From positions 328,847-392,846 of the forward strand of contig NIVC01000986.1 of the NCBI GenBank assembly GCA_002269645.1: DNA of 64,000 nt. The letters are read 5' to 3'. Within the stretch, counting starts at the first letter, position 1. Every line of letters starts with the position of its first letter. The translations under genes were made by a program, and so were the position numbers. The notes beneath the pieces were generated by a model. That model was not told where the DNA came from, searched no databases, and worked only from the letters and a program-made list of their open reading frames with translations. Shown piece by piece: positions 13,094 through 41,929 of the stretch. The DNA comes from Macrostomum lignano. Taxonomy: Eukaryota.

Positions 13094-13500
13094 TATGATA
13101 ACGGCTAGTTGGATATAGATGTTATAGGCATAGCACAATAACTACTGTAGTTACTAGTAGTACTGGTAGTACTGGTAATACTTAGACAAGCCACCTAGCA
13201 TAGTTATTATACGCGCTACGTAATTAACCTAAATAATTTTATAGAATATGTCTGTCTAGTATCAAGCTAATACGATTGGCATATTTTTGATTGACAAATG
13301 GCAATATAGCTAGCTAAATAATAACAAAAACATTTTTGTTACGACTCGAAACTGACTCGCTCGAAAGCGAGCCAAAGTCAAGCAATCATTGAACAGATAA
13401 AAGTAGCTTTGGATGCGAGACTTACCTTAATGCCTTTTTGCTGAAATAAAATTTAGACTTACTGGATGCGTATCGTGATAGGCCGGAAAATGTGGACGTT

Positions 13501-13823
13501 AGTATTTACGGTACAAAATTGCCAGCAAACCGTTCTCATAATTCAAAGAGATTTAACCCTTTATCAGTGTGAAATGACTTGTTTTCCCTTCATTATCGCT
13601 CGTCTTCACTTCGCTCAACTCGCTTCGCTCATCCTCGCTTCATTTCGGTCAATCTCCCCATTTCACACTTACAACGATTAATTCTCATTGAATTCTGAGA
13701 ATACTCCTCTTAGTTTGCTGGCAATTTTGTATCGCACCCAATTCTTCTAACACTTCCAACACTCTATAACCCGCTGCCGCGCCGCAGGCACGAAGGGTCT
13801 TTTTCTGTTACTAAAAATAGAAC
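13501..13823 (+). repeat. Left TIR of element 2
   Basis: Reverse complement of ~41096-41420 with only a few mismatches. Confidence 0.95.
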
Positions 13824-13828
13824 AAAAA

Positions 13829-14245
13829 ATGACACACGTTACACATATGCAAAATCTGAATGAATTGCAGGTAGGAGACCCAGTTCCAGTTGAATACCGA
13901 GGTGAGGGTCTTTTTGATGTGGTTGGAACAGCAGCAAATTTTGTTAAAGACAATATGGGTCTTATAGGGCAAGCAGGCTCCGCAGCAGGTTCTATAACAA
14001 ACGCTGTAAAGGGCGGAATCGAAGCAGCGAGGGCAGTAGAAGAACTAAAGAAATTGAGAGAATTTAACGACACCCTCTCACAAATAAAAGCAATAAAAGA
14101 TTTGAAACTAGCGCAGGAAGCAACCCAAGCCGCACAACCAACAGAAACCCCCACAAAAAGCACACCAATAAGTAATAAAGATATTCAGGATTTTAATAAA
14201 ATGTTAACCACAATTAAAGGTGGAAAAGGATTAAAGAAATTTTAA
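13829..14245 (+). CDS. Polinton small protein with GxG motif and amphipathic helix
   Basis: 138-aa ORF; YRGEGLFDVVGTAANFVKDN, C-terminal KGGKGLKKF. Confidence 0.6.
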   Translation: MTHVTHMQNLNELQVGDPVPVEYRGEGLFDVVGTAANFVKDNMGLIGQAGSAAGSITNAVKGGIEAARAVEELKKLREFNDTLSQIKAIKDLKLAQEATQAAQPTETPTKSTPISNKDIQDFNKMLTTIKGGKGLKKF

Positions 14246-14255
14246 CAATATAAAA

Positions 14256-15245
14256 ATGGATGCAATTAATGACAATCGGCTATATTTTATAGGAGAAATT
14301 GTAGACAGTCTAGATTTGGATGACAACAAACAAAGCCATACAATGTTAAAAAGATTGGATCGTTTAGGTAAAAAACTTGACAACGATATTGATACATTTA
14401 AACTTGCTGCAAAATATGCACAAGAAGGAAGACCAATATCCTTTAAGAATCGCGGTAGAAATTATAGGTTGACAGACTCCGATGTAAAATTTTTATTGGA
14501 GACTCACACTAAAAAGGACGGCGGCTTGCTACCTATTTTACCAATTCTTTTAGGTCTCGGAGCAGCTGGAGCAGCCGGTTTAGCAGGCAAAAGAATTCAT
14601 GATAACCGAAAACAGTTAGCAGAATTAAAAGCAAAACAAGGGGGCATACTTCCACTTGCAACTTTGTTACCAATAATTTTTGCAGGAATAGGAGCAGCTG
14701 GTGGAATAGCAGGCGGCGCAGCTGGAATCACAAAAGCAGTAAACGATAAAAAAGCTGCGGATGAAAAAGCTAAACGAGATGCTGAATTTCAAAGACAGCA
14801 AATAACACAGGATGCTCAATTCAAACAGAAACTCATTGACACCATTAATAGTAGTTCAGCAACAGCAGAGCAAAAAAGAAATGCAGAAGCTAGGTTAGCA
14901 GCAGGAAAAGGTTTAATACTAAAAGGAACAAATCATGGTGACGGTTTAATACTAAAAGGAACAACCCAAGGAAGCGGAGTTGTCGCAGATAAACTACACG
15001 AGTTTGGCCAAACTTTAGAAAAAACGGGTGAGAAAGCTAAAGGATTTTTTGACAATATTGGAGCTAATTTTAGGCCAGCAGTTCAGAAGATTTTTAATAA
15101 ATTGGGTAAAGATTTTAACATCATTGAAAAACATGACGGAAGCGGATTATATCTTGAAATGAGACCCAAAGCCGGATCTGGAATTTTCTTAAATGCAAAT
15201 GTTATGGGTCGTGGACTACTGTTACCTAAAGCGGAACTCGAATAA
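14256..15245 (+). CDS. Putative virion core/membrane precursor with two GG(L/I)LP modules and repeated GxG-hydrophobic motifs
   Basis: KKDGGLLPILP, KQGGILPLATLLP, GKGLIL, GDGLIL, GSGLYL, GSGIFL, GRGLLL. Confidence 0.6.
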   Translation: MDAINDNRLYFIGEIVDSLDLDDNKQSHTMLKRLDRLGKKLDNDIDTFKLAAKYAQEGRPISFKNRGRNYRLTDSDVKFLLETHTKKDGGLLPILPILLGLGAAGAAGLAGKRIHDNRKQLAELKAKQGGILPLATLLPIIFAGIGAAGGIAGGAAGITKAVNDKKAADEKAKRDAEFQRQQITQDAQFKQKLIDTINSSSATAEQKRNAEARLAAGKGLILKGTNHGDGLILKGTTQGSGVVADKLHEFGQTLEKTGEKAKGFFDNIGANFRPAVQKIFNKLGKDFNIIEKHDGSGLYLEMRPKAGSGIFLNANVMGRGLLLPKAELE

Positions 15246-15328
15246 GCTCCTGTGGGGAGGGTCAGGACGACTAAAACCTAAAATTAAAAACCAATAATTC
15301 AAATATTATATAAATTTTATTCTATAAA

Positions 15329-17343
15329 ATGGAACAAAGAATGACCCCAGATCAGATTCGACAACTTCTTGCAAATGAGCGCCAACAGTTCAATCGATTA
15401 AAAAGACAGATTGAACAAATTGAACAGCGCCAAAGACAACAACGCCGCCAAAGAGCAAGAGAAAGACAGAGAGAAAGGCAGAGAGAAAGAGAAAGACAAG
15501 AACAGGAAATAAACGCATTAGCAAATAATATAAGGGCAGAATATGAAATGAAGCGTTTAATAGAAAAGGCTGAATATGAAAAAAGAATAGCAGAATTAGA
15601 AAAAAACCAAAAGAAACAAATACGTCGGAAAGCGCAGAATAAATCGGATGAAAAATCATTAAAAGAGTTTATTAGGGTTTATCGATTTGAACCAATGCAG
15701 AATGTCCTAGATTTTATTGAAACCCAGCTTTCAAACGGATATAGTGTTGAAATTACTAATGCGAGGGTACAATATTTTTATAATAAAACCGGAGATGATC
15801 GCGAAGAGATTAATCAATATTTAGCAACATTTTATAATATAAGCCAGTTTCAAGCTTGGTTTAAGCATTTGGTAGAAAACTATGACATGAATTTAAGTGT
15901 GTTTTCTGGAAGACTTAAAATGACACCAAACGAAATCACACTTAAACACGAAAGGTCAAAGCAGGGTATGGGCACAAATGTCATGTGTGAAATTAAATTG
16001 CAGAGTATAAAGATGAGTACTGCTACATACCCAGTGATGGAAATTGTTTCTACAAGTGTGTTCAGTTTATTTATGGTGATAAAGCTCCATCCAAAGACGA
16101 ATATGGTGCTTGGTTGTACGACTCAAAAACCCAAAGAGGTTTAATGACAAATTCAAGAATTGGAAAATTCAATGAATATTTTAATCTTAACATAGGGCTT
16201 TATAATCCCAATAATCGTGGAATTGAACCAAAGTCTCAAAGAGGGATTCACCACGACTGGTTATTAATAAATTATTATCACACAGCCGATTACCACATTG
16301 GTCATTATTGTCTTATATCAAATAAACAACGAGGAATCGCCCTCGAACGGATAAAAGACAATTATAAAGTAGTATTTAAAAACCCAACGCCCGAAAATGT
16401 TAAAGAGCTAAAAATGTTCAACACATCCACAAATCCCAATAAATCAAATGTATACATATTTGATTTTGAAACATATTTAAATTATAATCAACAAGCATGT
16501 CCGTATGCAGTTGGTCTTTTAAACTATAACGACTTTTGTAATAATTGCAACGAAACCCCAGAGACAATAAAGAAACTAACTAAGATCTTGATATCAGATC
16601 GCGGTTGTGATTTTCAAACAGAGGGGGCTAAAATGGACTGCGTTAGAAAAATGTTTAAATACCTTGGTACAGTTATGTCAAAAAAGATTGTTTTGATCGC
16701 ACACAACTCATCCCGTTTTGATTCATACATACCACTATTTTGCAACATAAAACCAATTAAAATTCTTAAAACCCCTAGAGGAATATTATCAATCACTCTT
16801 GTAAACGATTATATGTCAAAAGAGGTTAGAGCGTTTATAAACAAAGATAAGAAGAAGAATCACAAGGATTCGAAACAAACCATTACGATGCTTTGTTCAT
16901 ATCAACACGCCTCAATGAGTTTAAAAAAGTTTTGCTCATCAATGACAATTAGAGAGGATTTGCGCAAGACCTCAATGGTTCACGACATTACCGAACACGA
17001 CTACCTAGAGCGCATGGATGAATGGTATGAATATTTACAATTTGATCTTATTTCTTTATGTGCCTGTATTCATAAGTATAATGAAATAGCATATGAAATT
17101 GGAGGAATGACAATGTTTGATACTCTTACATGTTCAAGTTTAACATTAAAATGTTGGTTTAAAGATTTTGTTAGAGTTGAAGACAAAATGAAACAATACC
17201 TAAAGACAAAAGAAAAAAGTAATTACATTAAAAAAGTTGAAGAAATAATATCTCCGTTAAAAATCGAAGATTATTTTGACTTAAGCAAACTTGAAAAAAT
17301 GAAATACCAAACACTATTAAGAAAATAATTTTCGGTTCACTCT
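15329..17343 (+). pseudogene. pPolB 5' part (terminal protein / vOTU-like / exonuclease)
   Basis: ORFs 15329-16144 and 16114-17328 are joined by a 1-nt shift near 15995. Motifs YIPSDGNCFYKC, GHYCLI, YIFDFET, AHNSSRFD. Confidence 0.8.
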
Positions 17344-17949
17344 CCCAGAGGAAAAGGCACCGCTGAAGCAACGGCGGACAAACGGTTACAAATGTCCGGC
17401 GCGAAACCGTTGGAACAACGGTGGCAATACAACGGTTATACAACGCTATACCAACGCCAAACCAACGCCTGTGAGGCCAATTGTGGTGAACTTTTAAATG
17501 TACTTTCTAGCTTATACCCGCAGCCTTTTTAAATACAGTGAATTTTTTACAGATATAACAGCATGGCTTCATATTTTAGTTGAATAATGTATCATAATCT
17601 TTATCGCAAATATCTTCTGAAATTTTACTATTGCAAACCATGCAATTCTCTTAGCTAGAGACCAATTTTTGTCTCAATTTCCAATAGAAAAAATTTAGCT
17701 GCTGAAAAAATTGTATAAAAATATGACGAGTACATTCAATAAAGATCATGCAAGTTTTTTAAATAAGTTGTCAGGTGGTTTTTATTGAAGTTTTATGGAA
17801 GCATTTTAATTTATTATTTAATAAAGTTATTAGTAAAATGGTATATACACTGTAAAAAGCAAAATTCGTAGTTTGATTGAAATTTAACGGCTATACTACG
17901 TTAATAAGTGCATATAACAGTGACATGATATGCTTAATTGCTGTCGCTG

Positions 17950-18445
17950 TCATTGTCGCTGCTGCAGCTGCTTAAAAACGCGACGGTACCACCACCATGT
18001 TGACTTGACTCCCGACTTTGCCGGCTTGTGGCAAGAGATCGCTTTTTTGTCTTTTCCAGCCTTCAGAGCTGTGACCACGGCATTCTCCACCTCGCTCTCC
18101 TCTGGCTGGAGCTCGCTGATTGATCTGATCGACTCTGAATATTTTAAATAAGCTTTATATTAAAATACAACTCCTGCACTGATGGCTTGGCAGCGGTTTA
18201 CATAACAGCAAACAGCTTACTTTCAATGATAGGAAAAAAGGTGACAAGGCCAACTGCCTATCAGAAAGAGTGGAGCCCAATAGTCTCTGCAGTCCTTGGC
18301 CATTGTAGTTGACTAGGGCCAGCATTTTGGTGGACAAAATTTTATGCACCATCCAGCGTGCAGTACCCATGTAGATAACTTGCATAGGCGAAGATGTGGC
18401 TTCTGTAGAAATAAATGAAGGCATAGCGACAAGCATATAGAGCAT
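17950..18445 (-). pseudogene. Two-exon remnant resembling a BEN/DUF4806-like domain
   Basis: MVHKILSTKMLALVNYNGQG...|GTAAGC intron CAG|..SIRSISELQPEESEVENAVVTALKAGKDKK; needs one shift in a T run. Confidence 0.35.
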
Positions 18446-19455
18446 TCCTAGATGGTGAGAATCAGCATGGAAAACAAATCAGAGTAATCACACCTAGAAA
18501 TTGTATGCATTTCATTCTTAAGGACTTTCTGCCTAGTCAGAAGCAATTATACACAATCTACACAATTATACATAATTATACACAAAATTGTACACTTGCA
18601 AATGGGAAATAAAAATTCAGAGTTTACAAAAAACTCACCAGATCATTGACCAATTCCAGATTATTCGCATAGCAAATATAAACCTCCCAGGAGTCAAGAG
18701 GCAATTTAGAATCCAAAGCTTATCAACTCATCAACGTTACTTAAGATATATCTTCTATATCACTTAGTATCAAAAGGGATAGAAATGTCCCCAGTTAAGT
18801 CCTTGATGACTTTGCAATTAAAGTTTCTTTTAGACATCTGAAATAAGAATAAATGAAGTTAAAGGTAACTTAAGCAAGATCAAGAAGATAATCATATTTA
18901 AATTATTTAACATATAGAGAAAATACATATAAATATATATATTGATTCTCTATAAGCTCTATAAGCTAGTTTTAGTCCAAGTGAATGCTTTATTGAAGGC
19001 ATATAAGATGTATTTATATATTTATTATTTCTTAAAATGACAAACAAATTATTATTAGGAAAAACAAATAAATTAAAAATATTTTAAACTTAGACTAATA
19101 ATAGCAATTAAATATAAATTTAAGAACCTTCAAACAAAATTTCAATATCAAAAGCAGAAATTAATAGTATAAGAGAAAATATTTAAAATGGATTTTTAAC
19201 CTTAGATATATGATATTAAAATAAATTTGGCCAATATAAAGACCTATAAAATAATAAAACAAAAATTTTTATATTTACAATATATATTAAGATATGCCTA
19301 CTTAAACTTTGACTAAATTTAACTATTTTATGATATGTAAGCTTTGAGCCCAACTACTAAAGCTTTACTTACTTTATATTAAAATAAACCAAAATATAAG
19401 ATGTACTTCTTAGAAAATATTATTTATATAAATGACTTTATAAGTATTCTAGTTC

Positions 19456-19711
19456 CAGGGGTGGTGGAGCCTAATATTTTAGGGGGAGGGGCACCAGGCC
19501 AGGGCAAAGGGGGCACAAGTACCTTTATAACTGCTAACCATGGGCAGCAGGAGCTTGCGGCACCGGAGGCATGTGCCTTTCTAAAAAATAAGTCTACACA
19601 ATTATTTTTAATGCTTTTTTATTTTAGACCCAATTAGCAATTACAAAGGTACCTGTGCCCCCTTGACCTTTGCCTGGTGCCCCTCTAAAATATTAGGCTC
19701 CACTGTCCCTG
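19456..19711. mobile_element. MITE-like inverted-repeat element
   Basis: GGAGCCTAATATTTTAG..AGGGGCACCAGGC vs GCCTGGTGCCCCT..CTAAAATATTAGGCTCC; no TSD found. Confidence 0.7.
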
Positions 19712-21219
19712 CTGCTAACTAAAGGCCTAAAATTAGAAAAAGCATTAAAAATTATTGCATGGACTTATTTTCTAAGCCCCCCATGTTGCAAGCTTTTGCT
19801 GTCTGTCTTTGACAAAAATAGAAACCTATATAGCTATAATTATAAATAGACAATGTCAATGACAATATAATTGCCTATAGACAATATTGTATTGAATAAA
19901 TATATTAAAACTTAAAAGCTTTTCTAGGCTTATATACAGATACAATAGGCCTATAGTATAATTATTAAAATATCTTAGCTTAGGTGCCAATATGTATACT
20001 TAGAAACATTAAAAACAAAAAAGAAACCACTCAAGCCTAGGCTACACTAAGTCACTAATGATATTTTTCTTCAATTATTCTAAAATATCAATAATATAAA
20101 AATAGATCAAAATAGCTTTAATCTATCCAATCTTTGCACATTGCTCTTCCTACTTCATTCTTGAGCTTAAGTCTGCCATGGTATAGGCCCTAGCTAAGTT
20201 GTTATTTGCAAAGATTAAGGAAGGATCCTATGATGGCACCTTTTTAATTTTAATGTTGTTAATATACTTAATGAATAAATAGGCATAGGCCTAGGCCCCT
20301 CTTAAACAAGGTCTCTATGTATGACAAAGTGTACCAGAAGTTTAAACTATAGGCCTGGCAAGTATAGGCCCAAAAATAAATGGGGTGAGTAATAATGCCA
20401 AGACAAACAATGCTTTCTCTATTATTTTTGAGGGCTTTGCTTGATGCCTTGACTTATAGTCACAGGGTCTCAGAGGTTCCTTCCTTGTGGTCACCCCCAC
20501 ATGAGAAAAAACACCCCTGTTGATAAGAAATGATTGTTGAAAGGAATGTCCTAAATTTGCGCATAGATAATATGTTGAGATCGCCAAGATCGAATTAATT
20601 AGGTCAGTTGCACTATACTGTACAACAGGGCGAACAGGGGTATGGGAACAAACTAATTATGCCTTAAAGAGCTAGAAAAAATAGCGACAGCACAAAATTG
20701 TAAAAATGCCATTGATAGAATTTGTTTTGCTATAATAAGACACGTGCACTAGATGGAGACAAACATGCAGTTGACGCAGTCTGTCGGTTAATGATGATAA
20801 TTAACGGCTGGCACAGTTTTGAATAAACTGTTCAAAGCAATACAGGACATCACCACATAAAACAAATTCTAAATGCTTTGGGAAAAATAAATAAATTTTT
20901 TTTGTAAATATTTATTATTAAACAAGTAAAAAACATGAAATATATTTTATTTTACTTCTTTAACATCATTTTATCTGCGTCAATAGATCGCCGTTGCTTT
21001 ACAGTTGGAAAAACAACTCGAATTCAACGTTGTGCAATCACAACGCTTTTACAACGGTTATTAATTTGTGCAGTGTATTGCATGTATGCATAAAGTAATT
21101 GCATTATTTTAACCTTATTCGCTTTTCAGTGTGCACGGCAAGCATATTTTCACCCAACGGTTTTCCAACCAGCTTCCGTTGGAACACCGTTGGATCAACG
21201 TACCCTTTTCCACTGGGCT

Positions 21220-22611
21220 CATACCAACCCTTATATAAGAAGGTTTATGAGGGACGCAGTCAAAGGAGGCAGAGTATTTGCACTAATAAATAAATACGAA
21301 AGCGACTGTTTTCAAACAATTGTAGACGTTGTAAAATACCATTTAAAAATACCAACAAGCGACCCATGCGAGGTTATATCAACTCATCTCAAAAGCGATA
21401 TGGAAGAAAAAAAGAAAATCGCAATTAAACTAAAAAACCAATTGGGTACCGTATCAGATTGTTTAATGAATTTTGATGGAGTCTCGTTGTATCCATCTGC
21501 CATGTCTGATAAGGATAGCGAATATCCAAGAGCAGAAACAGCCAGAGTGTTTGATATAAGCGAGGAAAAGGATTTTTTGACACAATTTAATTCACAAACC
21601 TTTCGACCAAAAACAGCGGTTTTAAAGATTATGTATGAGAATCCCACTAGCGTTTTTCTTCAACATCTCCCATCGAAAGACAAAGAGAAAGTTTATAATC
21701 CGGAAACAAAAGCAAACGAAACAAAAACATTAAATAGGTTTAGAAATGGAAAGGTAATCGGCACTTTATGTTCCGTAGACATACAAGAAATTGTAAGAAT
21801 GGGTGGAAAAATATTAAAGATATATAGTGGAATTGTATATGAAAAAAATTACGATTTCTCTCCGTTTCAGAATTATATTACAAACCTTTTTGAAATGAGA
21901 AAAGTATTTAAAAAAGAAAATAACGAGGCAGGTTCTGAAGTAGTAAAAACATTGTTAAATTCCTTATATGGTAAAACGGTTCAAAGAGACATTACTTTCA
22001 CAACGCATCTCTGGAATTTGAATACATTAAAAACAGAATACGATGACACAATCAAGTCATATGAGAAAATATGTGACGATTTATTTTATGTTGAAAAAAA
22101 GAAAGACACACAAGAATATGTAGATGACGACGATAGTCCTACAACAGGCCTTTGTCCGGCACAATTAGGCATATTTATCTTAGCTCATTCAAGAAGGATC
22201 ATGAATAATTTTATCACCTCTATAGACGGTTCAAAGACTCCAGAAATTTATTACGGTGATACGGATTCATTATATATACATAAAAAACATTGGGATACAT
22301 TAAATAAAAACGGATATGTCGGAAATAATTTAAGTCAAGGAAAAAACTATTATGGAGAGGGTGGAATTATATTCGGATATTTTATTGCTCCTAAAATTAA
22401 ATATTGTCTTTTATTGAAAGACGATTTTATTATGGAAGAGAAAAAAACATTTAAAGGATGTGCAAAGGATAAGATTAATTTTGCATCGTTTAAAACTTTA
22501 TATGATGGACAGTCAATAAAAGTAAATAATAATGCTCCGTGGAAACGATCGTTTGAAGGTGGTATTGTAGCGTACTTTAATAACTTTCCCGAAATTTCTT
22601 CAGATTTCTAA
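21220..22611 (+). pseudogene. pPolB polymerase domain (3' part)
   Basis: AVKGGRV, FDGVSLYPSAM, KTLLNSLYGKTVQ, YYGDTDSLY, APKIKYC. Confidence 0.95.
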
Positions 22612-23167
22612 AAGTCAAAAACTATTTCCAGAAACTTCTTTGAGTTAGCAGCTAATCTATAACATACGCATATAAATAGTAAATAATTAATTATCACTTA
22701 AGTATTAATGTTCTAATTATATTTACGTAATGTATATAATTAAAGGGTTATTTCGCTTTGTTAAAATTAGCTAAATCTTTCTAGAAATTTCCGGAAGGCA
22801 ATAACAAGGCTATAAATACACGGCGGCAGCAGTGAAACAAATCACTCTCTCGCTTTCCCCTTGTTTTCTCTTTGATCTAAGTTCCGTTGGTAAATAACTA
22901 AATGAACCACCGCCTTGCTCTTATTCAATAATCAATTAAAGAAAATTCTACAGTATAACAATTCCTCAAAGCGGATCAACCATATCAAAAACGTATACGT
23001 CTTCGATAAACACATTTAAAAGAGAAAAACCAGATAAAAACGGAGTTATGAAACCATTCTTTAAAAACTATTTTGATGACAAACCACAACACGAACATTC
23101 AATTGAATATTATAACAGCTTACTATATGACGTAGACTATAATTGTTTTGAGTTCGATATTGATGAA

Positions 23168-23530
23168 CTAGCACTTATCGATTAAAGCTCGCGACCCTAC
23201 GGGGCGATAAAAAACCAAAGCATGTAATTGTTTAAGCATAATATCCATTTCAATTTCGTATTTTATTGAGCACCAATTGTCCTCACAGTCGGCAGGGTAA
23301 CTTAAACATTCTTTTACTTTTTTCCTAAGTACTTTTATTCTCCTAACAAGACGATCGATTTCAATTTCAATTACTGTTTCAGCATAAGCAATTGCGCTTT
23401 TGATAAAACGCTTTCTTTTATCCAACTCGTATCGGATAGGAAACATATCATCCCCATAATCACTATAATATAATATATTAATATCATTCATTTCGCGCTC
23501 TTTTGTAACTAGGATCTTTAGTGTCTCCAT
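23168..23530 (-). CDS. Hypothetical Polinton protein
   Basis: 120-aa ORF with A-rich start context, packed against its neighbours. Confidence 0.5.
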   Translation of the reverse strand: METLKILVTKEREMNDINILYYSDYGDDMFPIRYELDKRKRFIKSAIAYAETVIEIEIDRLVRRIKVLRKKVKECLSYPADCEDNWCSIKYEIEMDIMLKQLHALVFYRPVGSRALIDKC

Positions 23531-23551
23531 TTTCTTATAAAAAATTTAAAC

Positions 23552-23882
23552 TTATTCAGAGTCTTCCTCCCAAACGGAAGCTAACCTTACAGTCCTGTCA
23601 CACTTTTTATTTTTTGTTTGTTTTAGTTTAAATTGCAACCCACTCTCCCGACTGTATTTCATAACAAACGTTTTAGGTTTATTAATAACTAAAACTGGAA
23701 AATTTTTAACATCATCCCCGCTTAGACATAGGACAGTATGCCCATCTAATTGTAAAAATATCGATTGAATTCCAATAAATTTAACCTGTCGCAAACATAT
23801 AATATTATATTCTTTATTCTCCAACATATTGGGCGCGAGAAAATTAATCACATTAGAATCGGTTTTGAACCAGCGCTCCATT
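23552..23882 (-). CDS. Hypothetical Polinton protein
   Basis: ORF; likely start MERWFK at 23882 (TAAAAATGG context). Confidence 0.5.
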
Positions 23883-25340: not shown

Positions 25341-25356
25341 TTTATATATAAATATT

Positions 25357-28666: not shown

Positions 28667-29439
28667 CTAAGACTGATCCTCGTCCTCGTTATCTTCATTT
28701 ATCAGATTTTTAAAGATTCGATTTTTCCTTTCAAGTCTTGGGTTGATATATATGTGTTTGTATTGACTATCATCCCAAATTTTTTTACTCATACTTTTAA
28801 ATGGTTTTGTATCCAACCCAGGATTAAATATAGCGTGTATATTTTGTAGATCGTAGTTATCCAAATCAAACATTACACAACAACTTGCATTCTTTTTTAT
28901 AATCGGTTCTAATTCTCTAAAGGACTGTGTTAGATAAACAGCTCCAATTCCATCACCTCTGCCACTAACAAAATTTCCTTTTGCAATTCTTGATCGCCAT
29001 CGTTAATACAATCGTCAAAAATATTTAGTGTTTTATCATGTTTTGGAATTTGATCGTAGGATAATCGGGTTGATACTCTAACATTTGGGGCTCGGTTGTT
29101 AGTGATAGTGTTTTCTGGATCTTCTGCCGTTGTTTTACATAAATCCTCAATGTCTGATAGAGTAAATCGCGGTTCGTCAACATCCTCATATTTCTCATAA
29201 GCCCTTAACATTCTAAACAAGATATCTTTTTTTAATTTGTTTTTTAATCCATGTTTAAGAAATTCATAATATTTTATTCTAGGTTTGTTAGTATATATTA
29301 ATAAATTATTATAGTCTAACATTCCGTCGGTTGTTAACAGGTCATAAACAAAGTGTGTTTTTCCTTTACCTGACCCTTCAATTACTAAACAAAGAAAAGG
29401 ATCGTTTGGAAATATAATATTGTGTTTTGCTTTTACCAT
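28667..29439 (-). pseudogene. A32/FtsK-like packaging ATPase (one frameshift)
   Basis: Walker A GSGKGKT, Walker B NIFDD. Adding one T at the A4 run 28970-28973 gives GRGDGIGAVYLTQS and joins ORF 28667-28873. Confidence 0.85.
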
Positions 29440-30974: not shown

Positions 30975-31598
30975 ATGAGTCAATTTATGGATGTTGATGG
31001 AGAGTTAGCGATTTATAAAGAGAAGCAAAGATATTCTGATTTTGTTAGAAACTTACAAAAAAGAAAGTTAGGAATACAATTAGCTGGCGAAAAATTTGCT
31101 GCTCCTTTTGTTAATCCTATAATGGGGAAAATTAGTGAACTAGAAAAAACAGATAAAGACCTTCTTGAAAAAATTGCTAAGAATACGGAGCCAAAAGAGG
31201 ATGAAATTTTGGATGAGCCGCCTGCTTATGATGTTGATCAAGCGCTATTGAGAGTTGCAGAGATTAGACGTGCAGAGCGGGGTGGAGTTGATGAATATCC
31301 GAGAGCTGCACCACAAAGTATTGCTGTGGTGGATTTAGGTAATGATAATTATCGAATTGGTGGATTTGATAAAAATCGGAATGAGCTATATAGAGAATTG
31401 GGTGGAGCATATAATATTATTATGAACCCTAGGGTAAGATTTAACCCTGAATTATATACTAGGGATGAATTAGTAAGTGCTAAAAATTTTTATGATGAAT
31501 TAGGAGTAAGAGCTGCTAAAAATACCAGCTTGTATAAAAGGATTGTTGATTCTATAAATAACAAACCGGCTGTTGGTGAAGGATTTAAAACTCCGTGA
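30975..31598 (+). CDS. Hypothetical Polinton protein
   Basis: 207-aa ORF divergent from the MCP gene; ends VGEGFKTP. Confidence 0.6.
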   Translation: MSQFMDVDGELAIYKEKQRYSDFVRNLQKRKLGIQLAGEKFAAPFVNPIMGKISELEKTDKDLLEKIAKNTEPKEDEILDEPPAYDVDQALLRVAEIRRAERGGVDEYPRAAPQSIAVVDLGNDNYRIGGFDKNRNELYRELGGAYNIIMNPRVRFNPELYTRDELVSAKNFYDELGVRAAKNTSLYKRIVDSINNKPAVGEGFKTP

Positions 31599-31666
31599 AA
31601 ACTTGTTTTAGCTGCTGCGAAAGCTGCTGGACATACGGGAATTTAGTTAAATTTATTTTTTATAAA

Positions 31667-32239
31667 ATGGAAACTAAAAAGATTTGTACTAAGTGTAAAG
31701 AAGAAAAACCAATGACTAAAGAGTTTTTTTGTTGGAGAAATGATTCAAAAAAAATTAGAAATGATTGTCGATTGTGTCATAATACTTCGTCTACGATGTG
31801 GATGAAAAACAATAAAGATAAATGGAAAGAATATAGAAAAAATAAATATCACACTGATGAAAATTACAAAAATATTACTTTAATTAGAAATAGAATAAAT
31901 AGGTCATTATCAACTTTTAATGACAAGGACTATATCTCATATCTTGGTTGTACAAAAGAATTCTTTTTTGATTGGCTAAATTTTACAAGAAATTATTATG
32001 TGTCAAAAGATTATGATGGTGCTTTACATATTGATCATTTAATTCCAGCTTCTTCATTTAGTTACAAAGACGAACATCAGATGAAAAAGTCTGAACATTG
32101 GACAAATAAAAGATACTTAACTAGTGTAGATAATTACTATAAAAAAGTTAAACAACCAACCATCGAAGAGTTTGCAAAACAATTAGTGTTAACTTGTATT
32201 TTTAAGGCTATTAAAAATGAGCAATCAATTAGTATTTGA
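31667..32239 (+). CDS. HNH-type (endonuclease VII-like) nuclease with N-terminal Zn finger
   Basis: CTKC...CRLC, YLGCT..FF.W, HIDHLIP, HWTN...DN..K, resembling large-DNA-virus homing endonucleases. Confidence 0.75.
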   Translation: METKKICTKCKEEKPMTKEFFCWRNDSKKIRNDCRLCHNTSSTMWMKNNKDKWKEYRKNKYHTDENYKNITLIRNRINRSLSTFNDKDYISYLGCTKEFFFDWLNFTRNYYVSKDYDGALHIDHLIPASSFSYKDEHQMKKSEHWTNKRYLTSVDNYYKKVKQPTIEEFAKQLVLTCIFKAIKNEQSISI

Positions 32240-32345
32240 AGGAGGATTGTTGGATGTTCAAAAAGGATTAACAAGCTTACCACCAATCTTTACTACTGGG
32301 AAGCATACAAATGAACTACATATTCCAGGCTATTCATTTACAGGT
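32217..32345 (+). pseudogene. 5' end of the PLA2-integrase gene
   Basis: MSNQLVFEGGLLDVQKG...ELHIPGYSFTG; continues at ~39384 (GTRLDLRLNP). Confidence 0.8.
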
Positions 32346-32886
32346 TAACCCGTGGCCTGAGTGGTAGAAGCAAAGCTACTGCTAGTCACTATTTGTGGCG
32401 ACATCTTCAAATTGCGTGAAACCCGTCATACAGCTTCAAGTACCACTTCAACTGAGAAATCTTTTGAAGGCCCTACTCTCCTTGCATGGATAAATCATGG
32501 ATGAAGCATCCATGATGCCATGTATGGATCATACCTGAACATGTATGGAGCCATACCTGATCATACATGGTTCCACGTAAACTTCATCCATGGTTACTTT
32601 CCATCCATGTACATTGATGTATGATTTTAAATATAATTTTCCTTACTACACTACTGTTAGTAGAACGCAATGTTTGCGTAGGTTCATTTTAAAGCTGAAA
32701 TTTTCTAAACAAATTCGGCAGCATCTTTAGTGCTGCTGAGAAATATGTTTCCATTCCCTTATAAATCACTTTCAAAACAAAAAAGTATCAGAACAAATAC
32801 TTATGCAATTAAATGTAGAAGTAATTGAAAACTCGTATGATGACCATTTCGAGACTTATATTATTAATGATAATTAGGCATAATTC

Positions 32887-33434
32887 ATTTCAAAGTACTG
32901 TAAGAAAAAATAAGACAGCTCAGTCTCAGAGAGCTTTAAAATACAGAATGGACAGAATTTGACGCATTTCAAGGTACTGTAAGAAAAAATAAGACAGCTC
33001 AGAGAGCTTTAAAATACAGAATAGACAGAATTTGACGCATTTCAAGGTACTGTAAGAAAAAATAAAACAGCTCAGAGAGCTTTAAAATACAGAATAGACA
33101 GAATTTGACGCATTTCAAGGTACTGTAAGAAAAAATAAAACAGCTCAGAGAGCTTTAAAATACAGAATAGACAGAATTTGACGCATTTCAAGGTACTGTA
33201 AGAAAAAATAAAACAGCTCAGAGAGCTTTAAAATACAGAATAGACAGAATTTGACGCATTTCAAGGTACTGTAAGAAAAATAAAACAGCTCAGAGAGCTT
33301 TAAGATACAGAATAGACAGAATTTGACGCATTTCAAGGTACTGTAAGAAAAAATAAAACAGCTCAGAGAGCTTTAAGATACAGAATAGACAGAATTTGAC
33401 GCATTTCAAGGTACTGTAAGAAAAAATAAAACAG
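32887..33434 (+). repeat. 73-bp tandem repeat, ~7.5 copies
   Basis: GTACTG phase points at 32974, 33047, 33120, 33193, 33266, 33338, 33411. Confidence 0.95.
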
Positions 33435-33763
33435 TAAATTTTACTGAACAGTCAATAAATAGAATTAGCCGAATTCGGTACGCATTAAGGGCAAGGGCCG
33501 ACTAATCCTTTACGAAACGAAGTTAATGCTGCATTAGTCAATTATTTGCGCACAGAAACTTGGAGATTTTGAATATGGAGAGATCGGACAAAGAGAGGTA
33601 ACGGTGGGAGTCTGAGAGGGAGGAAGTTGGGCATCTGGAAAGTTATTCTGATTCCCTGATGGTTTTATCTTGGTCATGGAGCATAATTTTATTTTCTGCC
33701 AGACTTTGCAGCATTAATAATAAAATAATCGGATCTAAGGTACGGACACATACTCGTACCTTT

Positions 33764-36064
33764 TTAATCATGTTCAAACTCTTTGAACAATGGCACAGCG
33801 CAATAACAGTCTTTGCTGAACGATTCTACTGGAACAGCGATGCAGGGTCGATCGACCTCTGAAAAATTAACTATACGTTCGCGTCTGGCCGATCTGGGCG
33901 CATTAGACAGGGATATCAATACAAAATTGAATGTCGAAGACTTTTTGAACATGGATTCCAGCAATGCTTTCCAATTAAGTAAATCGATGGGGAAAGTTGC
34001 TGCTGGTACTCGTAAAACAAAATCAAACAGCGAACCAATGGGATCCAAAATTTGCACTCGAATAGTATTAGGCTCGAGGAACTCTGCAATAGTGCAGATT
34101 TCGCCGGACTTCAATTGGCAAAGATGGTTAGAATTTTTCGACGCACAAGCTGAGCTTGTCGAGAAAAAATGTCCATTAAAATAAGCAAGTGAGTTTCGAA
34201 GAATACCATGTGGCCTGGATGGCTCTAAAGATATAGAGTTAACTGCATCCACTACAATAGAGTCCTTAACACAAGAAAAGTAGTGATGTAGCAACTTTTG
34301 AAACAAAAACTTGCGAACAAGCTGTGGGCCAAATGACACAGTTCCGCATAAGAACTTTTTGAACATGCCAATGGAGCTCTCAAATGCGAACATAGAATAA
34401 TTAAATACAGGTCCGTACAATTCGTACTGTTCAGCCATATGCAAAAGCAGGTGGAAATTAAGGCGGAGTACTTTCGGTCCGAATATTTGCTGAGCATTGG
34501 AGATAAAAGCTTTGCATAGCTTTTCGATATCAGTCTTATTTGATTGGGGGCTATACAACATGTGATAAATAAGAACTAAATTAGTTAACAGCAGTTTCAA
34601 TGGAAAATGCGAAATTCTCTGCAAAAACGTAGGAAGAAGAAAGTATAGCGCAAAGTTTTTAAAATGCTTTGCTTTCCAATCTGAAAAGCCTTTAAAATTT
34701 GTGTTGATTGTGATGCTAGAAGGAGTTATAGATTGACGAATACAATTAGATATGAAATCCATGCAATTAGCTGAGCAAAAATACAACTCGCGCCTGTTTG
34801 CAGGTAATGACAGCTCTTCTAGTAGATACTTGGTGTGGCCTTCGAAAAAGCAGTGTAAACTGTCAATAGGATTGCAGCTGGGAAACGGAACATAGTCTAA
34901 CAAGCAACTGCGCATCTTTACGCCAAAAACAGGCCGATTTCGAATTTGTGCGAGCCGACAGTGTTCAAGATGGGAAGATGGGTTTCTCAAAGGAAACAAG
35001 TAGCCTTCACCATAGCGGAAGATCCAGTTTTTACCTTTCTCGGATACTTTAAAGCTCTCACCTGGGTGCAAGCACCTAGGACAGCTAAACGCACCATTGT
35101 ACTGGTGAATGCAGAAGAGCTTAGCAAGAGCGGGCAAGTCACAAACAAAGAGTGTGTAATGGACATGAACGGTGTATTCCGAGAATATAAACTGTTTTGG
35201 CAAATTGTTCATAATTTCAGACAGAAAAGACTGGAAATGCGGGACTGCCTTCGATGAAACAAGAGCAATTAGAATTAAATTTGCAAAGCGTTGACGGATG
35301 TAAACAGGAAGGTTTAGAAGTTGAGCCTGAAATGGCCAAAAGCTACTCTGAACAGATTCAAAAAAATTGGCGCCATCAGCTGAGATTAGAAGATGCAAGT
35401 GAAGCGACTTGCCAGAAGATAGGCTTAAGCCTTGTTCTTTAACTATTTTGGAATTCAAAACGTCTGTGTTTTTATCCTTTTGCAATTCTTGCTCATACTG
35501 CAGAATAGTTGAAGTGTGGCTGCTTAAGATAGTCCGCAGCTGTGGAACAATATTGAGCTGTGTCACAGCAACCTTTGACTTTGGGGAATGAACCTGACAC
35601 TGGCTTTTGCATTCTGGGCAAAAGCCAAATTCAGACACGTCACTATCATCAAGAGGGCAAGTATCTTGAATCAATGATTTGAGCAACTTGACGCTATTTG
35701 GAAGAGCTAGAGAATCTCTACTAAAAATAGAAAGTAGCTTCAGGAGTCTATCAAGAGCAGCCTCTGAAACTCCGGAAGTAATTGCCCACTGAAAAATCAG
35801 AGCCGCCTGCACACTGGGATCTGAGATGGAAGCCAAATTCGCTAAGCTATCTGAACTCTCCTCAAGCACAGGCACAGCATTGTTTTCACCAATAAAAGTT
35901 TCCACAGCGTCAGGACAGCTGTGCGAGTGCGTTACACCGGCTTCGCTTGAAATTGAACTCCTATTACTTGTAGAAAAACTATTTGAGGGAGAAGAAATCG
36001 CCTGACAAGAGTAGGCTGAGTAATTAGTAGAAAGAGAGTGCTCAGATTCTGATTTACTAGACAT
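33764..36064 (-). CDS. CACTA/EnSpm transposase (Transposase_21-like)
   Basis: Intact 766 aa; ISADGA..SFWP, VCDLPA..QYNGAFSCPRC, IDSLHCFFEG, MFAFES. Confidence 0.9.
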   Translation of the reverse strand: MSSKSESEHSLSTNYSAYSCQAISSPSNSFSTSNRSSISSEAGVTHSHSCPDAVETFIGENNAVPVLEESSDSLANLASISDPSVQAALIFQWAITSGVSEAALDRLLKLLSIFSRDSLALPNSVKLLKSLIQDTCPLDDSDVSEFGFCPECKSQCQVHSPKSKVAVTQLNIVPQLRTILSSHTSTILQYEQELQKDKNTDVLNSKIVKEQGLSLSSGKSLHLHLLISADGANFFESVQSSFWPFQAQLLNLPVYIRQRFANLILIALVSSKAVPHFQSFLSEIMNNLPKQFIFSEYTVHVHYTLFVCDLPALAKLFCIHQYNGAFSCPRCLHPGESFKVSEKGKNWIFRYGEGYLFPLRNPSSHLEHCRLAQIRNRPVFGVKMRSCLLDYVPFPSCNPIDSLHCFFEGHTKYLLEELSLPANRRELYFCSANCMDFISNCIRQSITPSSITINTNFKGFSDWKAKHFKNFALYFLLPTFLQRISHFPLKLLLTNLVLIYHMLYSPQSNKTDIEKLCKAFISNAQQIFGPKVLRLNFHLLLHMAEQYELYGPVFNYSMFAFESSIGMFKKFLCGTVSFGPQLVRKFLFQKLLHHYFSCVKDSIVVDAVNSISLEPSRPHGILRNSLAYFNGHFFSTSSACASKNSNHLCQLKSGEICTIAEFLEPNTIRVQILDPIGSLFDFVLRVPAATFPIDLLNWKALLESMFKKSSTFNFVLISLSNAPRSARRERIVNFSEVDRPCIAVPVESFSKDCYCAVPLFKEFEHD

Positions 36065-36113
36065 AAAAATAGCAATTCAAATATTCAAAAGTTACTAGAA
36101 TTTTTTCCGCAAT

Positions 36114-38115
36114 TCACGGTCCCATTCGCCTTGAGCGGGAAATGGAATCCCCTGACTCGGGTCCAGAAGCAGCAGTTGAAGTTCGCTTTCTCGCCCGTGT
36201 CTCCTCCCTGGCCAGCTGATTGAGATGGTCTCGTACAGACTTCCAGATTTCGTGGAAGTCGTAGCCAGATGTTCGATAGCACAATTGAAGCAAACCTGAA
36301 AATTCACGAGTATAGTAAAATATTTTTACAATAGACATTGTGTACTGTGTTTATAGTAGAAATAGGCTAAATTTAAAAGGAAGTTGATTTATGATGCTAA
36401 TCATTAAATAGGTCAATGGGATGTATTGAACTTTAGAACTATTTTTCCTCAATTTCTTTTATCTCAGACCTAAATGTGTTTTTTTAGAAAATATCCCAAG
36501 TATTGGATTCAGATCATTTAGCATTAATTAGCCTAAATTGCTTTATAATAAAAAAATTGCACAAAACTGTGAAAAAATTATATATATATATTTACGTTGA
36601 AACTCTGTCACATGCTCAGATGGAGCAGGCCTTCGGGAACTGCGAGCACCACAGGATGAATCGATTATATGCTCAAGCAAGTAGCCTTCGCCAAATCGCA
36701 GCTTGATATACCTTCGGAGGAACACCTTAGGATCGTTGCAAAGAATTGAAGACAGCTCAGCTAGGGAACCATCAATGCACCTAAATTCCTAAAAAATGTT
36801 ATTATATAGTAGAACTTTTATACTACAGACGTGATGCTGCTGATGCTAAGAAAAAACTGACATACCTCATTTTGGTATTCTTTAATTGTTAGCATTCCAC
36901 CAAAGTTGTCATCCTTTTTTAAAAGTCGGCATATCCTTGCAGCAAGACGCTTCTCAAGAGAAAGCAACTCGGATTGAATGAACAGTTTTAGATCTAGAGT
37001 AAGATATATGCTCATATATAAAAATATGGTGATTTTGATTTTTAATAATGTGATTGTATCATATTAAAAAAATAAAATTATACCTTTCATTGTTGCATCC
37101 GATTCACTGTTTACTATCTGTACCCCTCGGAGGGGTTGCACTTCTTGAATTGCACCTAGTGATAAAAAAGGCTTATTGCTACAAAAATATTGACTCATTT
37201 GGTATTTGGTTTTCAATTAGGTGTAATAGAATATACAAACTTGATTCCAAGAGGCCTGTGGCACGAGCTTGCTCATTTTCAACCAAAGATGCCTCTCTCT
37301 CAAATGCAGAAATGGCTTTTTCTAAAAAATAATAATTAATCAAATAATACAACAAAAAAAACAAATTGCAAACAATTAATAGTTCATATATATTGCAGTT
37401 TTACCCATTGATTGAGTAGCTGGTATCGCCAAATTTGGTTCGCCACTTTCACTATCCACTTCATAAAGCTCGTCAAGTAGTCCATGCTGATGACAACTAG
37501 AACTTGAAGCAACCTGCTTTGAACTAGATGACCTTATTGTCCTTACATTTGCAATGCCAGCTTGGGGATCTTTCATTGCAAAAAGCTCAATAGCTTGGCT
37601 AATCAATGAATCAGTATTTTCAGCCTCACTAACCAAGTTGGAAAGTTGGTTCATAGTTGAAGCCATTTGCCTTTCACTACCTTTTGCCACAAGTGTAGCA
37701 GAAAATAGTTTGCCATACATGCGTAAAAAGACTTTAGTCCCCTAAAATATAATTTAATAAAGTAATATTACATTTGTAGTTGGAATAATTTGTTTTAGAA
37801 ACCATGTACTCAATAACAAAATATTATGCATATAAATCCAACTTAAAATCTTACTTGTGCAAGTTCCAACTTTTCATCATTAGTTATTGTACTTGGCCAA
37901 TAGGGAGACCCAAATGCAATGGTCACATATTGCTCATCATGGCCAACATTGTGAAGAATAAAGCAGAAAAACAATGCTGAATTGTCATTTCCAAATTTAG
38001 AAGTACTTTTTGTCTGCTTTCGAAGAGGCCTAGAATTAGATGCACTTAATCCAATATCATCCATAACAATTTGTTCTGAAAAAGTTTCACAAGGAGATAA
38101 GGTTTGAAGAATCAA
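36114..38115 (-). CDS. Spliced second gene of the CACTA element (BEN-like C-terminus); 5' end unresolved
   Basis: Exons ..-37855, 37741-37405, 36993-36866, 36788-36596, 36295-36114; all four GT-AG junctions are phase-compatible. Confidence 0.7.
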
Positions 38116-39383
38116 TCAAGAGGCCAATGACAAACCAATTAGAATTGTATATAAAAAAAATTTAATGTAGGGACCCTAGGCCCCTATGATTTTAAATAAA
38201 AATTATAATATAAGGCCTAGGCCCTATATATAGGCCTATAATTATAAAGTTGTGCCATTGTGGATTTTCTGATACAAAGTAGACAATATTAGGCCTAATT
38301 GGGCCTAGTCTAGTCTAGTTTTGATTATAGACTGTATATTAGATACAAAGGACATGAAAGGTCTCGAAATTAAGTACCAACCAATTACCATAATATACTA
38401 TTATTTTTTATTATTTTGAAACTGTCAGCCTACCATGTGATTTTTATCATTAGGCTATGGCCTAGGTCTAGGATGCCACTTTAGACTAGGCCTTTGGCTT
38501 TGGTTAGGCCAACCTATCATTATAAAAATGCAGCAAAATATCATTCAAAAATATACATCTAACCCCTATAGGTTATCTTTGCATCCCAAATATAATATAT
38601 AATAGGGTTTCTATTTTCTAATATATCTACAAATACAATTTTCACTGAAGGAGTGAAGATCAAAATTAGCATGTCAAAAAACCTTACAAGCCACCGAATT
38701 TTAAAACTAGCTACCAAAAGTGGAACTGGAAGTATATAGCTAAGAAAAAACATAAACATAAACATAGCACATAGTGACACATAATGAAATGATGACAACA
38801 TGCAAGAGTGACAGAGTCCTCTTAGAAAGGAAAAATAGGCCTAGTAATTTATGTTTATGGGAAGTTAAGTCCGTAATTAACTAAACCGAAACAAAATGGC
38901 CAACAAAATTGCTGGTAATATATTCAAAGCAATTTGTAGGTGAAGATTTTAACAAATTTATTAAACTATTTTTTGTATTTACAATTTCGCTTTTATTAAA
39001 TATATTTAAAACTTTATTAGATATACATAAAATAGCCTGAAATTTTTTATAAGCTTAGTTATTTATTTTCCCGTATGAACTCCCTGACATGGATGATTTT
39101 ACCATGGAAAGTTTTAAAAATCCATGCATGAAAATACCATGAACATGCATGATTTATCAATGGATCATGGATCATAGATGATTTATCCATGATAAGAGAG
39201 TAGGGGGAACAGAGGTAACTCCTCTTCCCAAAGGTAACAAGCTTGAAGACACGGTGGCAATGCGCAGCCAAGCTCCTAAGTATTTAATATAAGGAGAAGG
39301 TTCAGAGAGCAGACGGAGGTGGGCGGTAATCATCGCCGCTTAAGGTGTGCTCCAGCCTATTTTGAAAGATTTAGGGCAAACTG

Positions 39384-40531
39384 CCGGGACTCGGCTGGAT
39401 TTGAGATTAAATCCTGATAATACTCCAAAAGCTGATTCGATTCCCATAAATGGTATTGATTGGTTAGCATATTATCATGACTTAGCATACAGAGATGCTG
39501 ACAAGAACTCACCCGAGGAAGCATTAAGATTAAAACATGAAGCCGATAGAAAAATGATTCAAGGATTAGATGATTTACAAGGATTATCGGTAAGCCAAAG
39601 ATTAACTCGGTGGATGGTTAAAAGGATTCTGCAGTCTGAAGTTAAATTTGGTTTAGGAATTAATTATAACCGACATGGAAATAATTGTGTTGAATGTTTG
39701 CTGTTAAGTGGTAGTGGGTTAAGTTCTGATGAGGCAAAGGTTCTTCACAAAGAATACCGAAAACCTAAATTTTATAGAAAAATCATGAACTTCAAAAAGA
39801 ATGAAATTTGGTATGCTGATTTAATGTCAATGCCAAACGAAAATGGATATAAATATATCTTAACCATACTGGATGGTTTTACTCGATACGCGTGGGCTGT
39901 TCCTTTAAAATCCAAAAAAGGAGAAGAAGTTGCTGCTGCTTTTAGAAGCCTTGGAGAAAAAAGTAAAAGATTGTGTGTTGATGAAGGAAAAGAATTTTAC
40001 AATCCTCATATGTATAAATTGTATCATTTTGAAAAAGGACAAGAAAGGAAAAAGGACGCGAATGGGGAGTATATTAATAAAATTCATTCTATTTATGGCG
40101 AAAGCAAAAACGCACTGATTGAAAGATTTAATCGAACTTTAGGTAAGAAATTATGGTTTCAGTTTAGTCTTAATGGTAACCAAAAGTGGGTAAAAATATT
40201 GCCAGACGTCGTGAAAGATTATAATAACTCATATCATTCAGCTATAAAGATGACTCCTCAACAAGCTTATAACAATCCTGAAAAAGTTAAAGTTACCTTC
40301 GGGGACTTTGAAAAAAATAAAAAGAAACCTTTTAAGGTTGGTGATTCCGTTTATATATATAAATGGAAAGATAAGTTTGAAAAGGGAAGAAAAGGATATT
40401 GGAAGATAAGTGAGAAATTTACTATCAGTAAGGTTTTAAATACAAATCCTACAACCTATATCATTGCTGATAAGGATGGTGAAGAAATATTGGGTTCTTT
40501 TTATGAGAATCAGATAATGTCTGCGAACTAA
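39384..40531 (+). pseudogene. PLA2-like domain fused to RVE integrase (3' part)
   Basis: PINGIDWLAYYHDLAY, KFGLG, then WYADL, ILDGFTRY, VDEGKEF, IERFNRT and an SH3-like C-terminus, all in one frame. Confidence 0.9.
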
Positions 40532-40797
40532 GTTCGAACAGTTACTTAAGGCAACATGGTAGTAAATTTTTTATAACAAACAAAAACAATATTATTACTA
40601 TTATTGTTACTAATATTATTATTGACATTTGTTCAACAGTAATTAGACTTAAATTTTCATTAAGTTCATTAATCGGCACATTTCCGATGTAGGAGTAGTT
40701 TACCTTCATTTTTTTAAATATTTTTTTAAATATTTAAATATTTTTAAAAATTTTTCAAAATAAATGTAGTTTCTGTTATAGAATAATAGTTCATTTT

Positions 40798-41016
40798 TTA
40801 CATACTCTCCGAATCACTAGTTTCATAAGAACTATTTGTTGAGTTGGAATCATCTGAACGAACCTCCCAATCGTCTGAATTTAAATAATCTCCAAGTTGA
40901 AATATTAACTCGCCCTCTTGTTCTAAATCATACAACCCATCCAACTCTAACGGATAAAGTTTTAGTTCGTGCTTATCGTCATATTTTAAATAAACTTCAT
41001 CAATTATTCGATTCAA
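40798..41016 (-). CDS. Small acidic protein (start uncertain)
   Basis: Open frame extends upstream of 41016; acidic Ser-rich tail. Confidence 0.35.
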   Translation of the reverse strand: MNRIIDEVYLKYDDKHELKLYPLELDGLYDLEQEGELIFQLGDYLNSDDWEVRSDDSNSTNSSYETSDSESM

Positions 41017-41095
41017 AATATGCTGTTTTATTATCTCTGAATTTTTAGCAACAGTCTCAAAAGTATCACAAACTAACAGAAAAGGTGTAAACTCG

Positions 41096-41420
41096 GTTCA
41101 TTTTTAGTAACAGAAAAAGACCCTTTGCGCCTGCGGCGCGGCAGCGGGTTATAGAGTGTTGGAAGTGTTAGAAGAATTGGGTGCGGTACAAAATTGCCAG
41201 CAAACTAAGAGGAGTATTCTCAGAATTCAATGAGAATTAATCGTTGTAAGTGTGAAATGGGGAGATTGACCGAAATGAAGCGAGGATGAGCGAAGCGAGT
41301 TGAGCGAAGTGAAGACGAGCGATAATGAAGGGAAAACAAGTCATTTCACACTGATAAAGGGTTAAATCTCTTTGAATTATGAGAACGGTTTGCTGGCAAT
41401 TTTGTACCGTAAATACTACT
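41096..41420 (-). repeat. Right TIR of element 2
   Basis: Ends TACCGTAAATACTACT followed by GACGTT. Confidence 0.95.
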
Positions 41421-41929
41421 GACGTTCAAGCAAGCTCAGAACTTTCCAGTGGGCAAGAAAGCGTTGAAAAACAGAACTCTTGGAAAGACGTGGCTAGAAA
41501 GAAATACTTCTGCTTATTTGCGATTCTCCGCGCCTTAGCTGCTGTTCTGCATTGACAAAAAAGGCTGAGGTTGGCGCTAATGATTGAGCAGAGCTCACAA
41601 AGCGTGCGCGCACAAGCTGCAGCCCGCGCTGGATGAAGAGGCGGGGAGGGGCTGTGACTGGCGAGCTGGAGCTGGACGCAGAGCATTTGATTCTTAGGCA
41701 GGTAGAGTGAAGGAGTCTCAGAAACAAATCTTGCTCAGACCCCCATTTCCAGACAGTTACAGCTGCAGGCTGACTGCAGGTTTTAAGTTTACACCAGGCT
41801 CGGCAAAATCCGGCCCGCAGAGCCTCTGCGCCCGGCCTTGGGGTCCTTGTAAACTTTACAATAGCAACCCGGCCCGCTCAGGGTTTGTGTCTCTTCTCAG
41901 TTCCCTTCTCTATAATCTCCTCTCCCTTC

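Follow-up and report, generated by a model that had tools for sequence, protein, structure and literature searches.

Mavericks, also named Polintons, and the Alpha-type adintoviruses have in common AGT-ended terminal inverted repeats (TIRs), a 6-bp target-site duplication (TSD), a protein-primed DNA polymerase (pPolB), an rve integrase, an ATPase, a protease, two capsid genes and a phospholipase A2 (PLA2)-like gene (PMC8097293, PMC8502044), and the same assemblage, with the protease and the penton as putative members, recurs in the element treated here, which lies in a 64,000-nt stretch of the genome of Macrostomum lignano (GCA_002269645.1, contig NIVC01000986.1, positions 328,847 to 392,846 of the forward strand; hereafter the window, numbered from its first letter). 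Intact vertebrate Mavericks show no introns (PMC8097293), and the PLA2-like genes of adintoviruses are fused to pX (PMC8502044). Group I introns of Polinton-like viruses are recorded only from Paulinella, Desmodesmus and Rhodomonas, in a gene of ~50 amino acids (aa) upstream of the major capsid protein (MCP) gene, with no endonuclease identified (PMC12220804). Accounts of nuclear group I introns restrict them to microbial rRNA genes (PMC3679873), and those of animals are placed in basal lineages and some sharks (PMC10964413). Collaborative homing, described in phages (PMC3984707), is only hypothesized for Polinton-like viruses (PMC11296320, 10.64898/2026.10.13.758929), and a paper on nematode Polintons brings in a group I intron solely to suggest where an HNH domain might have come from (10.1101/2023.08.22.554363). 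The window element is a Maverick that carries a virion module, and its PLA2-integrase gene is split by a group I intron. This intron is real and conserved, and it sits where the reviews consulted say that such introns do not occur; it likely self-splices, and homing driven by an endonuclease likely carries it from one Maverick to another, a reading given a probability of roughly 0.7.

Set beside the described systems, the locus is distinct from the adintoviruses in that its PLA2 is fused to integrase rather than to pX and is interrupted by an intron (PMC8502044). The intron resembles those of protist Polinton-like viruses in belonging to RF00028, in its length (about 300-380 nt) and in occupying a protein gene of an integrated small DNA virus, but differs from them in its bilaterian host, in the gene that it splits and in the presence of a nuclease open reading frame (ORF) (PMC12220804). 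With nuclear and animal group I introns it shares a P3-P9 core and a P5abc-type extension; unlike them, it interrupts a gene that codes for a protein, and it does so on the chromosomes of a bilaterian (PMC3679873, PMC10964413). As in phage mobile introns, the endonuclease is either intron-borne or free-standing beside an ORF-less intron, and the target is a conserved motif (PMC3984707), whereas here both arrangements appear in one genome, with predicted Eco47II-like nucleases, in eukaryotic viral elements. That the host is a bilaterian follows from 86 Wnt matches in the genome, one of them sharing its contig with a Maverick copy, together with 18 matches to troponins, which have not been found in cnidarian genomes (PMC5253434). 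The literature searched, which lacked most subscription papers, yielded no description of such an intron in an animal Maverick or an animal nuclear gene.

The initial annotation had treated positions 32346-39383 as one insertion to be excised. This interval is two things, a transposon at 32471-39205 and, around it, a group I intron that is shared with sister elements: 125 + 178 bp within the interval are common to the sisters and form the halves of a ~300-nt segment. In two sisters where it is unsplit, the intron matches Rfam Intron_gpI (RF00028) at 65.8 and 63.3 bits, above the cut-off, whereas the 3' half in the window, cut at its 5' end, scores 26.6 bits (E 4.8e-5), below the cut-off because the transposon has split the intron. 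The intron interrupts the PLA2 loop motif, so labelled by its role in parvovirus PLA2. When unspliced, a stop codon directly follows exon 1; exon 2 forms one frame through PLA2 into the rve integrase. An uninterrupted version of the motif pattern occurs at 26 intron-less sites in the genome (none in the reversed control), of which two belong to the family of the window element (family A), 19 to a second Maverick family (family B) and five to others. Since intron-less alleles read as single natural ORFs, of 423 and 452 aa, they fix both intron junctions. Full-length PLA2-integrase fusions are also present in public metagenomes.

A P1 helix with the U-G pair at the 5' splice site of the intron forms in all four lineages tested, a P3/P7 pseudoknot with the G-binding G-C pair is present, and the whole is presumably IC1-like. 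Over 23 cores (13 from family A, 10 from family B), 96.7 % of paired cells are complementary, as against 36-56 % in slid controls, and both partners have changed in 10 of 64 pairs, of which P7 accounts for three and P3 and P4 for one each; a third version of P7 occurs in L251, an independent metagenome contig from JGI. Conservation of the helices equals that of codon positions 1+2: when 34 distinct copies of family A are compared, 6/102 helix sites, 20/144 other core sites and 14/56 sites of the 5' part carry shared variants, compared with 36/580 codon positions 1+2 and 30/79 fourfold sites in the same copies. Minimum-free-energy folding gives a z-score of only -2.25. Exact core motifs number 113 of the A type and 23 of the B type in the genome, with none in reversed controls.

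Variation within family A was followed in 37 mapped copies, which are the best matches to one sister and not a random draw (one of 38 was left unmapped, and L017 aligns poorly). Intron length is 299-303 nt in 35 of the 37, 23 have an exon 2 free of stops in the predicted phase, and all 37 meet an early stop when read unspliced. The canonical terminal G, found in the window intron, in family B and in L251, is replaced by A in 21 of these introns; the A-ending form goes with one exon-2 haplotype in 18 of the 21 cases and so likely expanded from a single lineage. The predicted splicing may be impaired in many of these copies, and coral ND5-717, which lacks the terminal G, still splices, less efficiently (PMC6545197). 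The PLA2 loop codons, the last six of family A exon 1, vary among intron-plus copies (PGYS, PSYN, PSMN, PSHN, PAMN), and such strong variation beside the insertion site is the pattern that target escape or co-conversion would give.

The 28 highest-scoring RF00028 matches of the genome (72.7-91 bits) all fall in family B. This family is distant from family A, with identities of 24 % in the MCP, 29 % in the ATPase, 59 % in the PLA2-integrase and 65 % in the protease, yet its intron, of 836-895 nt, sits at the same PLA2 site. In 27 of the 28 loci, a nuclease ORF lies within the intron, after P2 and running into the core. The ORF matches RE_Eco47II above the cut-off, its product falls with restriction-enzyme clusters in Atlas (0.91-0.92), and all four copies checked retain the terminal G, P1 and an open nuclease frame, of 228 aa; no solved structure resembling the Eco47II-like protein by sequence was found. 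The family A intron contains no such ORF; of 30 loci, 28 have an HNH/endonuclease VII-like gene just upstream of it and the other two an Eco47II-like one, and three fetched family A sisters also have an Eco47II-like nuclease in that slot. Intron-borne and free-standing Eco47II-like genes, both in one genome, are 61-72 % identical.

The same association is seen outside this genome. Contig L251 holds exon 1, an intron (80.6 bits) with a nuclease inside, exon 2 and the start of the integrase, with the intron at the same PLA2 site. Ten of 15 nuclease homologues have tails that translate the same ribozyme core, and, by a motif-based count, 17 of 121 IMG/VR loci and none of 43 control loci combine a homologue of the HNH-like gene with a nearby intron core motif in the same orientation. 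The best IMG/VR matches to the intron core are 70-78 % identical over parts of it, several of them on giant-virus contigs.

These arrangements suggest how the intron may operate. It would self-splice from the viral transcript and so join the two exons of the PLA2-integrase gene, a step that would be needed for the full fusion protein because translation of the unspliced RNA would end within nine codons. In family B, alleles lacking the intron would be cut by the Eco47II-like nuclease that the intron itself encodes; the family A intron, having no ORF, would depend on its free-standing upstream neighbour, whether HNH-like or Eco47II-like, and so on collaborative homing. The intron is probably mobile, judging from its distribution and divergence. 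Between families A and B, introns are 81-84 % identical against 59-65 % for the exons, mapping intron presence onto the exon tree takes five changes, of which no fewer than three are forced (one long row, L071, being unreliable), and intron-plus and intron-less alleles of family B are 98 % alike in exon 2 and 83 % alike over the final 30 nt of exon 1, a difference peaking just upstream of the site that would fit co-conversion. Intron identity and allele pattern are compatible with homing and are no proof of it. A bolder version, in which a working mobile ribozyme in a bilaterian nuclear protein gene splices from Maverick mRNA in animal cells, gates the PLA2-integrase and homes between distant families by means of an Eco47II-like PD-(D/E)XK endonuclease both inside and outside the intron, would be right or wrong at about even odds.

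A number of observations weigh against self-splicing and homing. The RF00028 cut-off is passed by only two of nine sister loci, the window not among them; one assigned pair failed in all 23 rows, and the covariation comes from only two or three lineages. The family A core evolves more slowly than the exon, so that constraint on the RNA could account for the high intron identity, and losses could account for the patchy distribution. A weak point against splicing is that no exon-exon joint is listed in the contigs of three sequencing runs guessed to be RNA and one unlabelled run, contigs being a form that drops rare transcripts, and contigs from the three runs, themselves only guessed to be RNA, cover the intron and cross its 3' junction unspliced. 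Intron-less alleles offer no usable control for this search, because they are 67-83 % alike near the junction and its threshold was 85 %. It is therefore conceivable, if unlikely, that the intron worked in free viral ancestors and is now mostly dead in this animal, integrated copies amplifying by means of integrase that is translated from an internal start or comes in trans from copies without the intron. Besides the unspliced contigs and the existence of intron-less alleles, this account draws on the A-ending majority in family A and on an internal Met at 39554, which opens a 325-aa integrase frame in exon 2 and might give integrase without splicing. It has to contend with helices that are constrained like codon positions 1+2 across integrated copies, with the G, P1 and nuclease frame kept in every family B copy checked, and with the precedent for splicing of an A-ending intron (PMC6545197).

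About as doubtful is the idea that the intron splices and does not move, having come down together with the PLA2-integrase module and disappeared on several occasions, the nucleases being restriction-like competition genes. The PLA2-integrase and protease are far closer between the two families than the MCP is, so the module may have moved whole, and distant nuclease homologues are mostly without an intron: an intron call is absent in 19 of the 20 nuclease-homologue loci scanned (44 having been fetched), a result that also counts against homing. Inheritance with the module fits poorly with the placement of the nuclease ORF inside the intron in family B and in L251, with the allele difference concentrated in the end of exon 1, and with the gains or losses forced on the exon tree. 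A spliceosomal intron or a small transposon as the source of the shared 300-nt segment is highly improbable: a GT does stand 2 nt upstream of the junction, but most copies have no in-phase AG, there are no TIRs and no target duplication, the group I core is complete and covaries, and the junctions given by the intron-less alleles contradict either origin. Least credible of all is the original proposal of an intact, recently inserted virus genome from which only two insertions need be removed. It could appeal to the TSD, the 99 % identical TIRs and the open MCP and penton frames, and it is refuted by a third insertion, a solo long terminal repeat (LTR) at 22566-22952 in polB, and by at least seven further lesions; moreover, one of its boundary pairs belongs to the group I intron, and no near-identical sister exists among 87 MCP matches. 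What remains preferred is an intron that likely self-splices and homes, with the window intron split later by the CMC transposon and now likely dead.

The element itself (Table 1) was correctly delimited by the initial annotation, with GACGTT on both sides. Its TIRs, of ~320 bp, match at 319 of 322 aligned bases (99 %) with one 1-nt gap and have (AGT)n ends, the left end being short of one AGT. In the 764-Mb genome, the left repeat finds 71 matches and the MCP 87 scored matches of 616 candidates; because the assembly may hold duplicated haplotypes, these are counts of matches and not of loci. Ten loci with facing terminal repeats (spans of 3-26 kb) served as the sister set, and most, judged by eye, have 6-bp duplications of their own; sister elements measure 16-19 kb. 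The claim of a fairly young insertion holds only in part, as the closest MCP match is 93-94 % identical over the full length and synonymous divergence (dS) of the MCP from five sisters is 0.23-0.33. Relatives with open capsid frames are numerous: 44 of the 87 MCP matches, the window copy included, are full length without an internal stop, with none nearly identical to it. The virion genes of the family have diverged under selection (dN/dS 0.09-0.18 for the MCP, 0.04-0.14 for the penton and 0.09-0.17 for the integrase). As had been proposed, the family looks undescribed at the sequence level, because the MCP has only three homologues, all unnamed and 41-48 % identical; no MCP relative was found in IMG/VR. 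The structure prediction then suggested for the MCP gives, from four sequences, a low-confidence model (predicted local distance difference test, pLDDT, 50; 30 from a single sequence) whose top structure matches are only double-jelly-roll capsids (Sputnik, E 3e-12), and Atlas places the protein in viral clusters at 0.97-0.98, some of them double-jelly-roll, with recognition below its threshold.

Table 1. Features of the Maverick element and its insertions (positions in the window)
Feature	Position	Strand	Remarks
Left TSD GACGTT	13495..13500	.	6 bp
Left TIR	13501..13823	+	without outermost 3 nt of right arm
138-aa ORF	13829..14245	+	open; conserved in sisters at 95 %
329-aa ORF with adenovirus pX-like stretch	14256..15245	+	open; Pfam Adeno_PX E 1.4e-4, below cut-off
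Protein-primed polB	15329..23185	+	PF03175 E 1e-17; four pieces: one frameshift (~15995), two insertions
DNA-transposon insertion in polB	17344..21217	.	CCC..GGG ends, 2-bp duplication CT
Solo LTR in polB	22566..22952	.	387 bp, TG..CA, 4-bp duplication GTAT
Fibre-like gene	25357..27227	-	frameshift ~27105 and four stops at 26232-26325
Putative cysteine protease	27238..27651	-	internal deletion; no Pfam or PHROG match
Putative penton/minor capsid, 261 aa	27837..28622	-	open; label from size and position; no Pfam or PHROG match
A32-type packaging ATPase	28667..29439	-	frameshift ~28975, Walker A altered; sister ATPase matches Pox_A32 E 5e-7
MCP, 493 aa, double jelly roll	29459..30940	-	open
223-aa family gene	30975..31646	+	premature stop at 31596
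Free-standing HNH/endonuclease VII-like gene	31667..32239	+	phrog_1035 E 8.6e-10; overlaps PLA2 start
PLA2-integrase exon 1	32217..32345	+	43 codons, with ..GYSFTG at the end; the exon's final base, U, forms a pair with G in P1
Group I intron 5' half (P1 to P5b)	32346..32470	+	93 % to sister intron
CMC/CACTA-type transposon inside intron	32471..39205	-	6.7 kb, duplication GG; 766-aa transposase at 33764-36064
2-bp duplication and group I intron 3' half (P5c to P9.0)	39206..39383	+	ends in G; 96 % to sister
PLA2-integrase exon 2	39384..40531	+	PLA2 body fused to rve integrase (PF00665); frameshift at its start
Right TIR	41096..41420	-	
Right TSD GACGTT	41421..41426	.	6 bp

The window copy is disabled, an ordinary dead copy of a multi-copy family. 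Lesions were read from alignment of natural sister proteins to the window; a 218-aa gene additionally has a frameshift at ~24965. The MCP and penton are uninterrupted, as first stated, whereas the polymerase, ATPase, fibre, protease and PLA2-integrase are damaged, so that the complete ~17-kb genome once thought recoverable is not, most core genes being broken. The putative protease is so labelled from an adenain motif. By the usage of PMC8097293, where an intact Maverick has all core ORFs unbroken, this copy is not intact. In the fibre gene, outer domains are swapped between copies, and one sister has an F5/8 type C domain (L001:6608-8593).

All three insertions are specific to this copy. The boundaries given earlier for the first were exact, and it is missing from the seven fetched sisters that span polB. 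Going by its end features, it is presumably CMC/EnSpm-like; a miniature inverted-repeat transposable element-like unit (small, with inverted repeats) at 19456-19774 is nested in it. The solo LTR belongs to a small non-autonomous element of ~1.7 kb, like a terminal-repeat retrotransposon in miniature, whose family occurs as pairs ~1.3 kb apart and has 40 scored matches, most at 94-97 %. The transposon inside the intron is young, 32 of its 40 scored matches being identical over 410 bp; its transposase matches DUF1258 (E 1e-14) and, weakly, Transposase_21.

Some further observations concern related elements. In an intron-less family A copy (L108-L109, G000:C1051), tblastn does not match the polymerase region to the polB of family A, which suggests a swapped replication module. 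A family B copy (L104-L105, G000:C1830) adjoins a further morphogenesis module with a second ATPase and ORFs of 428 and 287 aa, and the junction of the two is a ~100-bp hairpin with AGT ends. Elsewhere in the window lies a second, decayed Maverick of another family (~800-5950), in which fragments of an integrase and of a pX-like gene are recognizable and the PLA2 motif, near 5650, is intron-less. At 8234-8904, a 21-bp tandem array is surrounded by fragments that resemble the Maverick terminal repeat at 89-93 %, and at 46748-48481 there is a 1.7-kb element with 395-bp inverted repeats that are 98 % alike.

A conserved intron in more than 100 Maverick matches shows how viruses can carry ribozymes into animal chromosomes, and it makes self-splicing in animal nuclear mRNA testable. 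Free-standing and intron-borne endonuclease stages are visible side by side, natural G-ending and A-ending ribozyme variants are on offer for biochemistry, and Maverick integrase genes are open to mis-annotation where such an intron goes unnoticed. Since homing needs two viral genomes in one cell, its occurrence, if true, would point indirectly to encounters and recombination between Mavericks in their viral form.

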